Shown here in pieces: positions 12,545 to 18,261 of a stretch of 64,000 nt of DNA. Below the pieces are notes generated by a model. It did no database searches and was not told where the DNA came from. It saw only the letters and a program-made list of their open reading frames with translations. The first letter of the stretch is position 1, and every line of letters begins with the position of its first letter. The position numbers and the translations under genes were made by a program. Source of the DNA: Vicinamibacterales bacterium (GTDB lineage Bacteria > Acidobacteriota > Vicinamibacteria > Vicinamibacterales > 2-12-FULL-66-21); NCBI GenBank assembly GCA_048594975.1, contig JBMDXQ010000090.1, positions 7,093-71,092 on the forward strand, written 5' to 3'.

Positions 12545-13876
12545 TTACGCATACGTGACCGGCAGCTCACGATCGTCGACGAAGTAGCTGGCGCACGCCG
12601 CGTCGAGCAGTTCCGGCGTCAGGCGGCGTTCCGCGTCGAGATAGTCGGCGAGCGAGAGTACGTGCTCCACGAGGTCGCGGGGCTGGCAGCCGCGCAGCTG
12701 GATCTGCCGCGGCCGGTAGTAGTTCACGAGCATGTGCTCGATCGGCTCGCGGTCGAAGGGGATCCGCCGTTCGCCGCAGACGTTGCTGAAGATCTGCATG
12801 AACTCCGGCAGCGTCGGGCTCTCAGCGAAGATCTTGTAGTGGATGCGGCGAAGGAACGCCTCGTCCACCAGGTCCGCCGGCTTGATGTTGGTGGCGAAGA
12901 CCACCAGGGTCAGGAACGGCAGCTCGAACTTCTGGCCGCTCTGCAACGTGAGGAAGTCCACCCGGCTCTCGAGCGGCACGATCCAGCGGTTCAGCAGGTC
13001 ACGCGGCGAGCAGGCCTGCCGGCCGAAGTCGTCGATCACGAGCACGCCGCCGTTGGCGATCGTCTGGACGGGCGCGGCGTAAAACCCCGCGGTGGCGTTG
13101 TAGTTCAGCTCGAGGGACTCGAGCGTCAGCTCGCCTCCCACCATCACCATGGGGCGACGGCAGGCGACCCACCGGGCGTCGAGCTGCGACCCCCTGTCCA
13201 GCCCGATGCCGGACGCGGGTCCTTCCGACGCCGTCGCGACCGGTTCATGGTTCACCGGATCGAACAGCCGGACGATGTTGCCCTCCACCTCCAGCGCGTG
13301 GGGGATCGCGATCTGCCCCTCCAGGAGGTTGCGGATCGCCTGCGAGATGACGGTCTTGCCGTTGCCCGGGGGCCCGTACACGAACATCGAGTGGCCGGCA
13401 TTGATCGCCGGGCCGAGTTGATCGAGCACGCGGTCGCCGATGACGAGGTGCGAAAACGCCTGGCGCACCTGCTCGCGCGTCGCCTTGCGCGGGCGCGCGT
13501 CGCGGAATGCGCCCATGTAGCGGCGGTATTGCTCGAGCGGCACGGGCGCGCAGCCGACGTAGTGGCTCGACTCGAGGAAGAGCGCGGCCCGCGTGCGGCC
13601 CGCGTCGGTGATGCGGTAGCGGTACGACGCCCGGCCGATCATCGAGCCGCCGCCGATCTCGCAGTGGCGCTGCGCGACCATCATTTCGAGCACGGGCTCG
13701 ACGACCGTGAAGTTCAGCCCCAGCCGGCGGGCGAGCTCGACGCCGGTCAGCTCACCGCTGAAGTGCAGCGCCTTGAGCGCCAGCTGCAGGACCAGGTCCG
13801 CCTTCAGGCCGGCCTCTTCGAGCGTCGTCGGGGCGGTCGGGTGCTCGACGAGTTTCGGATCGGCGATCGTGGTCAT
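12545..13876 (-). CDS. AAA+ family ATPase with N-terminal winged-helix-like domain
   Basis: Walker A GPPGNGKT, Walker B VLVIDDFG, FATN, EAFLRRI; ATG overlaps upstream stop (ATGA). Confidence 0.82.
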   Translation of the reverse strand: MTTIADPKLVEHPTAPTTLEEAGLKADLVLQLALKALHFSGELTGVELARRLGLNFTVVEPVLEMMVAQRHCEIGGGSMIGRASYRYRITDAGRTRAALFLESSHYVGCAPVPLEQYRRYMGAFRDARPRKATREQVRQAFSHLVIGDRVLDQLGPAINAGHSMFVYGPPGNGKTVISQAIRNLLEGQIAIPHALEVEGNIVRLFDPVNHEPVATASEGPASGIGLDRGSQLDARWVACRRPMVMVGGELTLESLELNYNATAGFYAAPVQTIANGGVLVIDDFGRQACSPRDLLNRWIVPLESRVDFLTLQSGQKFELPFLTLVVFATNIKPADLVDEAFLRRIHYKIFAESPTLPEFMQIFSNVCGERRIPFDREPIEHMLVNYYRPRQIQLRGCQPRDLVEHVLSLADYLDAERRLTPELLDAACASYFVDDRELPVTYA

Positions 13877-14853
13877 TGGGGTTCCCCCGCATCCGCCAGC
13901 GAGGCGCGGAGCGCCCTGGCGCGGTCGCAGGCGTCCGCCGGGCCGCCGCGCGCGCCGCACGCCGCCTGGAAGGCGGCGAGCGCCGCCGGCCGTTCGCCGA
14001 GCGACAGGTTGATGACGCCTTCGTTGTAGTCGGCGCGCGCCACCGATCCCGCCTCGCGCAGCGCCTGGCGCGCCAGGTCCATCCGCCTGCTGGCCGCGTA
14101 GGCGAGCGCGAGGTTGTGCCGCGCCGCCAGCAGCGCCGGATCGGCGGCCACCGCCTGGCGGCAGTAGCGGATCGCCGTGGCGGCATCGCCGTCCACGAGC
14201 GACAGGTAGCCGAGGTTGTTCATCGCGAAGGCGGCGTCCGGCTGGATGGCCAGCGCGACTTCGTACGCGTTCTGCGCCTCACGCTCGTTGCCGAGCGCCT
14301 GCAGCACCGTGCCCAGCGTGTTCCGCGCCGCCGCGGAGTAGGGCGCGAAGTACACCGCGCGGTGGGCATCGGCCAGCGCCAGCGCGGGCAGCCGCGCGTC
14401 GCGCCACAGCCGCGCGAGCCCGTCGTACGCCGCCGCGTCACGCGGATCGAAGACGAGCGCCACGCGATAGTGGCGGTGCGCCGCATCGAAGACGCCGAGG
14501 CGGGCGTATTCCGCCGCGACCCGACGATTTGTTTCGGCCCCGGGCATCGCCCGCAGCGCCAGCAGCGCCGCCGCCAGCCCCGGATCGGAGCTCTCGAGCG
14601 TGGACCCGAGTGCCTGCCGGGGTCTCGGCTGCGCGCGTGCCGAGAGCTCGCGGATCTTGCCAATCACGGTCTCGAGGGAGTCCGCCGCGGGAGCCACGTC
14701 GAACGGGGCCGGGGCGGAGGCGGAGCCGGGCTGCGCCCCGCTCACGAAGCGGCTCGACAGGCTGGACGGCGCGCGCGAGGACGCGCATCCCGCCGCCAGT
14801 GCCCCGGCAACGACTACTCCCACCGTCAGTCGACTGGCTCTCGCGATCGTCAT
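13873..14853 (-). CDS. TPR lipoprotein, TadD/pilotin-like
   Basis: Lipobox LAAGC; TPR repeats (RNTLGTVLQALG, MNNLGYLSL, RHNLALAYA); position after tadC. Confidence 0.75.
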   Translation of the reverse strand: MTIARASRLTVGVVVAGALAAGCASSRAPSSLSSRFVSGAQPGSASAPAPFDVAPAADSLETVIGKIRELSARAQPRPRQALGSTLESSDPGLAAALLALRAMPGAETNRRVAAEYARLGVFDAAHRHYRVALVFDPRDAAAYDGLARLWRDARLPALALADAHRAVYFAPYSAAARNTLGTVLQALGNEREAQNAYEVALAIQPDAAFAMNNLGYLSLVDGDAATAIRYCRQAVAADPALLAARHNLALAYAASRRMDLARQALREAGSVARADYNEGVINLSLGERPAALAAFQAACGARGGPADACDRARALRASLADAGEPQ

Positions 14854-14882
14854 GCCCCTGGCCCCGATGTCAGCAACGCGGC

Positions 14883-14984
14883 TCAGTCGAACTTCTCGCT
14901 GCGCAGACGCGCGCGGCGCTTGACCAGCCACAACCCGCCGAACACCACTGCGCCGACGATCGCGATCACTGTGATGGGTTCCAT
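14883..14984 (-). CDS. 33-aa single-TM micropeptide MEPITVIAIVGAVVFGGLWLVKRRARLRSEKFD (not called separately in ORF track)
   Basis: Strong SD AAAGGAG with A-rich spacer before ATG 14984; fills tadC-tadD gap; TM plus basic tail. Confidence 0.72.
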   Translation of the reverse strand: MEPITVIAIVGAVVFGGLWLVKRRARLRSEKFD

Positions 14985-15025
14985 TTTGCTTTCTCCTTTG
15001 ATGGTTATCCGTGGTCCGAGTTCGC

Positions 15026-15940
15026 TCACCGGCCGTGCGTGCCGAACACCTCGATGATCTTGATGACGGCAGGGCCGAGAATCACGACGTAGAGTGCCGG
15101 GAAGAGGAGCAGGACGAGCGGAAACACCAGCTTCACGGTGAGCTTGGCGGCCCGCTCCTCCGCCCGCTGCCGCCGCTTGGTACGGGACGTGTCGGCGTGT
15201 GTCCTGAGCGCCTGCGCGACGCTCGTTCCGAACCGGTCCGTCTGCACGAGCATGGCGACGAGCGAACGCACGTCCTCCACGCGCGTGCGATCCGCGAAGT
15301 TCTTGAAGGCTTCGAGCCGCGCCTTGCCGGCGCGGATCTCCATCGTGACGAGGCGCAGCTCCTCGGCCAGCGCCGGGTAGGCGAGGTCGAGTTCCTCGCT
15401 CGCCTTGACGATGGCCTGATCGAGGCTGGAGCCGGCCTCCAGGCACACGATGAACAGGTCCAGGGCGTCGGGCAGGCCGTTGCGGATGACCCGCTGACGG
15501 CGCCTGGTCTGCCGCCCGAGCCACAGGTCGGGCAGCAGGTAGCCGACCACGACGCCGAAAATCGCCGGCAGGATGCCGCGGCGCCCGAACACCAGGACGA
15601 TCGTGGCGGCGAGGCCCGCCGCGCAGAGGATCTTCGCCGCGGAGAACGCGATCGTCGCGTTGAGGCTGCGGTAGCCGGCGGCGGTCAGGCGCCGGCGCAG
15701 GAGCGACATCTCCTTCGGAGACTTCTGCACGACGGTGGCGACCTTCTTGGCGAGCGGGCTCACGGTGTCGGCCACGAGCGGCGCCGGGAGCACCAGGTCG
15801 GTGCTGGGGCCGGCGCTGAGTCCGTCCAGCCGCCGCCGCGCGGGCGCGCGGCCGAGCAGGATCGACCTGGTCACGAGCCCGGTCGTGAGCGCCACGCCGA
15901 TGAACACCGCGGTAACGGCAATGAGGAGATCGGCTTGCAT
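15026..15940 (-). CDS. tadC: Tad inner-membrane platform protein TadC (T2SS F family)
   Basis: LPDALDLFIVCLEAGSSLDQA, LVQTDRFGTSVAQALR, AEERAAKLTVKLVFPLVLLLFP. Confidence 0.92.
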   Translation of the reverse strand: MQADLLIAVTAVFIGVALTTGLVTRSILLGRAPARRRLDGLSAGPSTDLVLPAPLVADTVSPLAKKVATVVQKSPKEMSLLRRRLTAAGYRSLNATIAFSAAKILCAAGLAATIVLVFGRRGILPAIFGVVVGYLLPDLWLGRQTRRRQRVIRNGLPDALDLFIVCLEAGSSLDQAIVKASEELDLAYPALAEELRLVTMEIRAGKARLEAFKNFADRTRVEDVRSLVAMLVQTDRFGTSVAQALRTHADTSRTKRRQRAEERAAKLTVKLVFPLVLLLFPALYVVILGPAVIKIIEVFGTHGR

Positions 15941-15949
15941 CGGGTTGCC

Positions 15950-16918
15950 TCAGTACTCGAGGTTAGTGAGCCGCTTCACGACGAGGCCGCCTGTCACCTG
16001 CAGGATGAGCGCGGCCACCACCATCTTCACGCCCAAGGGATGCGTGATCAGAATCTTCATGGTGTCCGGCGCCACCACCGCGATGGCCAGGGCCGTGACC
16101 GGGGGGAGGCCGACGAGGACGAAGCCGGTCATGCGGGCGTGCGCGGAGATGACGCGGACCTGCCGCTTCACCTTGAAACGCTCGCGGACGACGCGGGCCA
16201 GATTGTCGAGCACTTCCGAGAGGTTGCCGCCCGCCTCGCGCTGCGTCAGCACCGCGGTCGCGAAGAACCGCGCGTCCAGGAGCGCGATGCGCTCGGCGAA
16301 CGCCCGGAGCGCGTCGGACAGCGGCATCCCGAAGTTCTGGCGGTCATAGAGCAGCCTGAATTCCGCGGAGACCGGATCGGGCATCTCGTCTGCGACCATG
16401 CCGAGGCCGGTGGTGAACGCGTGCCCGGCGCGCAGCGCGCGGGCGATGAGGTCGAGAGCCTCCGGGAACTGCTCTTCGAACAACAGCATGCGGCGGCTGC
16501 GCTTCCACGCCAGGTAAACGTAGGGGCCGAACATCAGCAGCACGGCGGCCACGGCGCTGATGCCGCGCAGACCGGTCAGGATGGCGAGGATGGAGTAGCC
16601 GCCGAACAGCGCGGTGCCGCTCATCAACAGGAACATCCCCACGGTCATGCGGGCGTCGGCCTGCTGGATGAGGCGCTCGATCGGCGCCGTGATCCGCGTC
16701 GCCCTGATGAGGAGCCGGTTGAGCGCGCCGACGTTGCTGAGCTGCTGCTCCTGTACGAGCAGCGCCGGCGTCTTCGCCAGACGGCTGCCGGCGGCTGCTT
16801 TCAGCCGCTTCTTCAGCTTCCTGGTCGACTCCTGCTCGGTCCGGACGACGAACCCCCAGTACAGGCCGAGCACGATGGCGAGCACTCCGACGAAGGTCCC
16901 GAGAATCAGCGGCTGCAC
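15950..16918 (-). CDS. tadB: Tad inner-membrane platform protein TadB (T2SS F family)
   Basis: FEEQFPEALDLIARALRAGHAF, QREAGGNLSEVLDNL; GGAGG SD before GTG 16918. Confidence 0.92.
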   Translation of the reverse strand: MQPLILGTFVGVLAIVLGLYWGFVVRTEQESTRKLKKRLKAAAGSRLAKTPALLVQEQQLSNVGALNRLLIRATRITAPIERLIQQADARMTVGMFLLMSGTALFGGYSILAILTGLRGISAVAAVLLMFGPYVYLAWKRSRRMLLFEEQFPEALDLIARALRAGHAFTTGLGMVADEMPDPVSAEFRLLYDRQNFGMPLSDALRAFAERIALLDARFFATAVLTQREAGGNLSEVLDNLARVVRERFKVKRQVRVISAHARMTGFVLVGLPPVTALAIAVVAPDTMKILITHPLGVKMVVAALILQVTGGLVVKRLTNLEY

Positions 16919-16929
16919 TGTCGCCTCCG

Positions 16930-18261
16930 TTACGCCACGACCTGTATGTGGTCGAACATCTCGATCGCCAGCGGATAGCCCGACGACTGCAGCTGCGCGC
17001 TGCACTTCGGCCGGATGCCGGTGGCCTTGAACCGGCCGATGATGCGGCCCTCCGGCGTGAGCCCGGTGCGCTCGAACACGAAGATCTCCTGCAGCGAGAT
17101 GATGTCCTGCTCCATCCCGGTGATCTCGGAGATCGCCGTCACGCGCCGCGCGCCGTCGGTGAAGCGGGTGATCTGCACGATCAGGTTGACCGCCGAGGCG
17201 ATCTGCTGGCGCACGGCGCGCTCGGGGATGTTCAGGTTGGCCATCGCCACCATCGTGTCCAGCCGGTAGAGCGCGTCGCGCGGGCTGTTGGCGTGAATGG
17301 TGGTCAGGCTGCCGTCGTGGCCGGTGTTCATCGCCTGCAGCATGTCGAGCGCCTCGTCGCCGCGCACCTCGCCGACGACGATGCGGTCGGGCCGCATGCG
17401 CAAGGCGTTGATGACCAGCTGGCGCTGCCGCACCGCGCCCTGCCCCTCGATGTTGGCCGGCCGGGTCTCGAGCCGCACCGTGTGTCGCTGGCGGAGCATC
17501 AGCTCGGCGGCGTCCTCGATGGTCACGATGCGTTCCTTCTCGGAGATGAACCCGGAGAGCACGTTGAGCATCGTGGTCTTGCCGGCGCCCGTGCCGCCCG
17601 AGATGATCACGTTCAGCCGGCAGGCCACCGCCGCGCGGAGGAAGTCGAGCATCGGCTGCGTGAGCGTCTGCCGCGCGACCAGGTCCTGGGCGCCGAGACG
17701 ATCGGTGCGGAAGCGCCGGATCGAGAGGCACGGGCCGTCGAGCGCGAGCGGCGGGATGATCGCGTTGACGCGCGAGCCGTCCTGGAGGCGCGCGTCCACC
17801 ATCGGGCTCGACTCGTCCACCCGTCGGCCGACCGAGCTGACGATGCGTTCGATGATCCGCAGCAGGTGCCGATCGTCCTTGAAGACGAGCGCGGTCTCCT
17901 CCAGCCTGCCGTTCCGCTCGATGTAGATTCGGTCGTGCCGGTTGACGAGGATGTCGGAGATCTCGTGATCGCGGAGCAGCGCCTCGAGCGGTCCGAGCCC
18001 GAACAGCTCGTTGAGCACGTCGACGATCATCGACTCGCGCTCGAACAGGCTCAGCGGCACGGTATCCGACTCGCGGTCGAGCAGCGAGACGATGATGCTG
18101 CGGATCTCGGGCTCCGCCTCCTCCTTGTGGACCTTGGCGAGCCGCTCCAGGTTGAGGCGGTTCAGCAGCTCCTGGTGCACGCGGGCCTTCAGGTCCTGGT
18201 ACTCCGGGTTGCGCACGTCGGCGGCGACTGCAGGGGCTGTCTTGACCGTGAGTGAAGTCAT
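16930..18261 (-). CDS. cpaF: Tad pilus assembly ATPase CpaF/TadA
   Basis: Walker [47 protein letters not shown]. Confidence 0.96.

Follow-up and report, generated by a model that had tools for sequence, protein, structure and literature searches.

The Tad operon of a soil acidobacterium (Vicinamibacterales bacterium, GCA_048594975.1, contig JBMDXQ010000090.1, positions 7,093 to 71,092 of the forward strand; this whole stretch of 64,000 nt is called the window) has an open reading frame (ORF) of 33 codons directly after tadC, which raises the question whether so short a frame is a gene and, if so, what its product contributes to the pilus machine. Tad pili drive adhesion and biofilm formation, and the inner-membrane platform is, to our knowledge, the least understood part of the Tad machine. 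Judged by its sequence and by comparison with relatives, the ORF is a real, conserved protein-coding gene tied to tadC, and its product probably belongs to the Tad adhesion-pilus machine as a small component that has been overlooked.

The operon lies on the minus strand and comprises genes for a TadG-like protein with a Tad domain, a TadZ/CpaE-like ATPase, a T2SSE ATPase and two T2SSF platform proteins, and continues with the micropeptide ORF and genes for a TPR lipoprotein, an AAA+ protein, and a double-vWA protein. The features around the micropeptide gene are, in window coordinates:

15950 to 16933, minus strand: tadB, the second platform gene, T2SSF domain (Pfam PF00482, E 6.9e-20).
15026 to 15940, minus strand: tadC, 304 aa, T2SSF domain, directly upstream of the micropeptide gene (Pfam PF00482, E 5e-19).
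14993 to 14998, minus strand: Shine-Dalgarno (SD) sequence AAGGAG, 8-nt spacer to the ATG at 14984.
14883 to 14984, minus strand: micropeptide gene, 33 codons with the stop codon within the coordinates, product MEPITVIAIVGAVVFGGLWLVKRRARLRSEKFD (from translation; conserved 3′ of tadC).
14922 to 14975, minus strand: predicted transmembrane (TM) helix, codons 4–21, ITVIAIVGAVVFGGLWLV (hydropathy maximum; single helix in AF2).
14901 to 14921, minus strand: juxtamembrane basic motif KRRARLR, codons 22–28, with the two invariant Arg R23 and R26.
13873 to 14853, minus strand: TPR lipoprotein gene, lipobox LAAGC, TadD/Tgl/PilW-like, directly downstream (TPR Pfam matches).
14883 to 15524, minus strand: spurious 213-codon GTG ORF in the frame of the micropeptide, its upstream part lying out of frame over tadC.

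The initial annotation had described a micropeptide with this translation as filling the gap between tadC and tadD, with a strong ribosome-binding site, one TM helix with a basic tail, and a spurious longer ORF around it. This description agrees with the features found, with the correction that the gene is on the minus strand: the ORF begins 41 nt after the tadC stop codon, 29 nt separate its end from the start codon (ATG) of the TPR gene, AAGGAG (14998 to 14993) precedes the start at a spacing of 8 nt, the single hydrophobic stretch has a charge of −1 on its N side and +4 on its C side, and the tadC overlapped by the longer GTG ORF has the Pfam T2SSF match. The name tadD for the downstream gene is reasonable as far as TPR-lipoprotein resemblance goes and no further, its NCBIfam Tgl and PilW matches being sub-threshold. 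The micropeptide had also been called hidden, which it is not really: gene calls for precisely this 33-aa product exist in NCBI and on 9 Logan contigs, the order always being tadC, peptide, next gene, and the micropeptides of relatives are annotated at NCBI as “hypothetical protein.” Third-position GC content (GC3) was 0.88 in the micropeptide frame vs. 0.62 and 0.47 in the other two frames (tadC, 0.93). Promoter-like or terminator-like sites were not found in 13800–16000, and the search of the micropeptide region against Rfam gave no match and no antisense RNA was found there.

TadC searches in related genomes and assembled genome contigs yielded 93 loci, and a scripted junction scan covered 63 genome-contig loci (56 of acidobacterial type and 7 of Planctomycetota). 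A conserved ORF at the tadC junction of relatives, on which the initial annotation had made its proposal depend, is indeed kept: a homologous ORF of 29–35 aa lies 3′ of tadC in 56/56 acidobacterial loci recovered with TadC from genome contigs (49 intact copies with SD, six frame-broken copies, and one cut by the contig end). Every intact homologue has a GGAG/GGAGG-type SD at the same distance from its start, and the start lies at about −60 to +51 nt relative to the tadC stop codon. Type-1 Tad loci of related genomes likewise carry the micropeptide, which reads MDTMTLVGIIGAVVFGGLYLAKRRARLRSDQFE at the tadC junction of a same-genus relative and, for example, MDTTTMVAGAGALVALVLYLMRRRARLAKDDD and MSTTTIVLLVIFAVLLVVYLGRRRGRLGRED in more distant relatives. 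The six frame-broken copies (L039, L076, L078, L079, L083, and L086) are all in “MFD” metagenome-assembled genomes (MAGs) on very long contigs, and one of these loci has a broken tadC too. Since the frame breaks are confined to MFD or few-contig assemblies, they look like long-read indel errors and not like gene decay. Frame breaks also occur in two loci of the related-genome set (L014 and L015; MFD or few-contig assemblies), and several of all these frame-broken loci have broken tadC or TPR frames as well. An apparent peptide-TPR “fusion” of 360 aa in L014 was rejected as a frame-shift artefact, as the acidic tail SEEADGK, followed by the stop codon, lies in the neighbouring frame. One of the 56 loci, labelled “uncultured Bifidobacteriaceae” (L059, CAZDLW010000035.1) has the Vicinamibacterales-type block of tadC, peptide, TPR, AAA+, and vWA genes; its TadC nests within the Vicinamibacterales clade, and the contig is probably mis-binned or mislabelled. 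Nothing comparable to the micropeptide was found in the seven Planctomycetota loci, the sole loci examined outside Acidobacteriota.

The micropeptide is inherited with one tadC lineage and was retained throughout its diversification. In a TadC tree of 115 sequences (FastTree; quick and unrooted), 58/58 members of the Vicinamibacterales type-1 clade were peptide-positive vs. 0/17 members of the paralogous clade, and presence of the peptide required seven state changes on the tree vs. 33 with shuffled labels. The genome’s other, paralogous Tad locus (C154:120090–120968) encodes a TadC that is 46% identical and has a DUF192 gene directly after tadC and no micropeptide; relatives’ Tad loci of the paralog type are likewise peptide-free with DUF192 after tadC. 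This paralogous locus lies on the same contig (genome G000, C154:119000–121200, outside the window), and the genome has in addition two two-domain PilC/GspF-type genes (C56 and C7). The usual order within Vicinamibacterales is tadC, peptide, TPR, AAA+, and vWA, and the micropeptide still follows tadC in the loci without a TPR gene (L056, L057, L061, L064, and L075) and in those without an AAA+ gene (L049, L070, and L074); these sub-lineages retain the vWA gene along with the micropeptide. Because the TPR or AAA+ gene is missing in some loci and the next gene in other classes is DUF192, tadC is the only constant neighbour. Co-inheritance with the TPR lipoprotein was consequently rejected from the loci that have the peptide and lack the TPR gene, as was co-inheritance with the AAA+ ATPase from the loci that have the peptide and lack the AAA+ gene and from the other classes, in which the AAA+ gene is present in 3/17 peptide-positive vs. 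8/20 peptide-negative loci. The micropeptide is also not a helix split off from TadC, whose length of 304 aa is the same in the two Tad loci of this genome, with and without the peptide, and no TadC with a C-terminal extension of the TM + RRR type was found.

Selection was examined on a codon alignment of 51 micropeptide copies, whose consensus is M-x-T-x-T, a helix of about 18 residues, and LYLx(K/R)RRxRLxx(E/D)D. Alignment columns 24 and 27 are invariant Arg in the 51 copies (R23 and R26 of the window peptide); they are encoded by five and four codon types, with 875 and 873 synonymous vs. 0 nonsynonymous pair differences. Tyr20 is kept in 50/51 copies, the window peptide having Trp at this position, and the Leu preceding it in 45/51. 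The ratio pN/pS was 0.44 in the motif, 0.78 in the TM segment, and 0.65 over the whole ORF (about 0.43 corrected), synonymous sites being near saturation in this alignment. Constraint on the whole ORF is moderate and the helix accepts many hydrophobic swaps; the lower pN/pS of the motif compared with the TM segment places the constraint mainly on the predicted cytoplasmic juxtamembrane motif LY-L-x-(K/R)-R-R-x-R-L-x-x-(E/D)-D. On this substitution pattern the micropeptide is under purifying selection at the protein level.

In a search of 300 Acidobacteriota genomes with the peptide profile, strong matches were confined to the order, and two weak genome-wide matches (G070 and G300) fell exactly after tadC. 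Inspection of tadC 3′ junctions of other classes revealed a TM + RRR peptide of 29–33 aa, sometimes duplicated, in about 17 of 41, with about 24 of 41 lacking it. This sister type has the form MDxxTIIRIVAGVLFVIVLxxLIQRRRTRVK, and the gene after it is DUF192 or DUF192-PilZ. The two groups share the site after tadC, the size, the M-D/E-x-x-T start, one helix, the RRR-x-R cluster, and the occurrence of tandem duplicates, and hhalign aligned the Vicinamibacterales and other-class groups with a probability of 96.5% and an E-value of 8.7e-10, a value that the TM-plus-basic composition may inflate. They differ in that the Vicinamibacterales form has the near-invariant Tyr, the R-L pair, the acidic tail xx-E/D-D, and the block of TPR lipoprotein, AAA+, and vWA genes next to it, whereas the QRRRTRVK type has a basic C-terminal end and precedes DUF192(-PilZ). 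The window peptide shows the features by which the family was delimited, i.e., an ORF of 29–35 aa with an SD that starts no more than about 50 nt from the tadC stop codon, a polar start, one helix, and R-R-x-R. Tandem duplicates with an SD each were seen after tadC in one Vicinamibacterales MAG (L038:3937–4133) and in two genomes of another class (G147, L136/L160; G070, L108/L172), so that the copy number of the micropeptide is not fixed. Absence from the paralogous loci, from Planctomycetota, and from many loci of other classes indicates that Tad machines do not universally require it.

The best 17-residue Kyte-Doolittle window of the product starts at residue 4 (mean 2.44), and AF2 returned one helix over residues 3–30 (pLDDT 87.5). 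As the charge on the C side exceeds that on the N side (+4 vs. −1), the positive-inside rule predicts an N-out/C-in topology. TadC itself can be read as having four membrane helices, a cytoplasmic T2SSF domain, and a periplasmic C-terminus, and the latter would be compatible with an N-out partner helix. TadC residues 73–89 (gene at 15026–15940) form an invariant cytoplasmic segment, SPKEMSLLRRRLTAAGY, with an RRRL string that resembles the RRxRL motif of the peptide; the resemblance may be a coincidence or may reflect a shared contact surface.

This is a genuine Tad-operon gene, and we favour, with moderate confidence, the reading that its product serves the TadB/TadC platform in the inner membrane as a small accessory subunit, comparable to KdpF, CydX, and AcrZ. 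The gene would be translated from its own SD site into a single-pass inner-membrane microprotein, with a short polar/acidic N-terminus in the periplasm, a helix of about 18 residues spanning the membrane, and the cytoplasmic juxtamembrane motif LY/W-L-x-(K/R)-R-R-x-R-L followed by an acidic tail. The helix would pack against the membrane helices of the TadB/TadC platform and place the invariant Arg at the cytoplasmic surface of the membrane, the site at which the TadA ATPase and the platform come together. Predicted topology, putative platform binding, and a presumed effect on pilus assembly together make up this reading. The earlier proposal of a highly translated small accessory subunit or regulator of the Tad platform is supported in part: the real small protein of the Tad operon tied to tadC stands, and high translation, binding to TadB/TadC, and a role as regulator in place of subunit are carried over as predictions. 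Further reaching and clearly more tentative is the idea that the micropeptide might be a third Tad platform subunit across Acidobacteriota, with its invariant R-x-x-R motif contributing to the contact through which TadB/TadC would be linked to the cytoplasmic motor (TadA/TadZ) or to c-di-GMP signalling.

KdpF (of KdpABC), CydX (of cytochrome bd), and AcrZ (of AcrB) are operon-encoded single-helix micro-subunits. The micropeptide resembles them in its roughly 30 residues, its one TM helix, its place in the operon of a membrane machine, its own SD, and its co-inheritance with one membrane component; there is no sequence relationship, the likeness being one of general knowledge and not of homology, and physical association is putative in the present case. 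It would fall in this class by having fewer than about 50 residues with one TM helix, by its position in the operon of its presumed partner together with co-inheritance, and by the purifying selection on it. An operon-encoded single-helix micro-subunit is a known kind, of which the micropeptide would be a putative case not yet described for Tad machines in the literature searched: full-text searches returned no such micro-subunit, neither for Tad machines nor for those of type IV filaments. A recent in-situ cryo-tomography study of Caulobacter lists cpaA-K, cpaO, pilA, cpaL, and cpaM as components, with no microprotein among them, and model Tad systems, as far as the literature shows, lack the micropeptide.

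Rather unlikely, in our estimate, is that the micropeptide acts as a membrane tether or regulator, its basic-then-acidic cytoplasmic tail recruiting or gating a soluble partner (TadA, TadZ, a PilZ/c-di-GMP protein, or the AAA+ ATPase of the operon). Such a role would fit the finding that the cytoplasmic R-R-x-R-L motif, and not the helix, is the most conserved part, as well as the R-x-x-x-R spacing in the motif and the DUF192 or DUF192-PilZ gene that comes next in other classes. However, the peptide tracks neither the TPR gene nor the AAA+ gene (the 3/17 vs. 8/20 loci of other classes given above), the downstream partner varies between classes, and an Arg cluster after a helix also resembles a simple topology signal.

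Still less probable than tethering or regulation is a real small membrane protein that has nothing to do with pilus assembly, e.g., a membrane-stress or toxin-like hydrophobic peptide riding in the operon. The product is short and hydrophobic with a charged C-terminus, as are many small membrane peptides, and its weak, sub-threshold matches were to models of sorting anchors and of various small membrane proteins; searches of Pfam, NCBIfam, and PDB sequences with the micropeptide gave nothing above threshold. Against such a peptide speak its one fixed site after tadC across the TadC clade and other classes, the genome-wide profile matches in G070 and G300 exactly at tadC, and the operon context, in which an own promoter, an antisense RNA, or an Rfam match was not found.

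The families closest in appearance were each rejected as an identity for the micropeptide. Sorting anchors (PEP-CTERM, LPXTG, MYXO-CTERM, and similar) have a helix followed by an Arg/Lys cluster, and this resemblance accounts for the weak matches; they are tails of large exported proteins with a signature motif before the helix, whereas the micropeptide is free-standing with its own SD and ATG. Their scores lay below the curated cut-offs (PEP_CTERM, 14.5 vs. 16 bits; LPXTG_anchor only at E ≥ 0.02). DUF6203 (PF19706) and DLW-39 (NF038356) are small actinobacterial membrane proteins that are likewise short with a single helix, and their best single-member E-values were 0.0058 and 0.00048, respectively; DUF6203 reached 17 vs. 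a cut-off of 26.7 bits with 1/42 members matching, and DLW-39 reached 12.7 vs. 24 bits with 6/42 members matching. We know of no Tad context for either family. Flp/Fap pilins (PF04964) are likewise small hydrophobic products of Tad loci, but they are distinguished by a leader peptide ending in Gly and by the G/xxxxEY motif, which none of the 51 micropeptide copies has (0/51), and by the Pfam match that the micropeptide lacks; its hydrophobic segment moreover occupies the extreme N-terminus, with the cytoplasmic Arg cluster coming after it.

That the act of translation is what matters, through coupling or spacing for the downstream gene, with the peptide itself irrelevant, is very improbable: the short gaps of 41 and 29 nt and the weaker SD-like sequence of the TPR gene would suit such a device, but amino-acid identity is kept through synonymous change, length and motif stay the same even though different genes lie downstream (TPR, AAA+, or DUF192), and tandem duplicates occur. 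That the ORF arose by chance in a GC-rich gap between genes, for which the abundance of long shadow ORFs in GC-rich genomes would speak, is excluded for practical purposes, since all relatives with this type of Tad locus keep the ORF and the SD, the codon pattern, and the size of the family agree with a gene.

The family is large. Of 1.84 billion representatives of 50% identity clusters searched with the profile, 733 matched at E ≤ 1e-3, 28 of them at E ≤ 1e-10. The top-ranking 150 of the 733 matches were all free-standing and 26–70 aa long, the longer ones being start miscalls or read-throughs, and fusions of the Rosetta-stone kind were absent among them. These 733 cluster representatives at 50% identity make up an uncurated family that is locked to one Vicinamibacterales tadC lineage and has relatives elsewhere in Acidobacteriota, and at minimum argue on firm evidence for an annotation fix and for a curated model of this small-protein family. 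If the micropeptide is a platform subunit, it would offer a small, easily mutated handle on platform assembly or ATPase coupling, and the Tad parts lists from model organisms would be incomplete for major soil phyla. If the tentative third-subunit reading is true, pilus extension/retraction in abundant soil bacteria would depend on a 30-residue protein omitted by annotation and by every current Tad model.

Two further forms of the tadC junction were observed. A longer variant after tadC, 55–65 aa as called, is present within one family in two genomes (L117/L169 in G282; L137/L170 in G055); it has an extended N-terminal part before the helix and ends in VIVVRRRM(R/Q)ERDD(E/D)W, with an AAA+ gene about 3.5 kb downstream. 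In a peptide-negative locus of another class (L178, G234:C93), a TPR protein is encoded directly after tadC, and this protein has an N-terminal membrane helix of its own with a basic cluster before it (RSRLMHKRRLVAIAIALML...).
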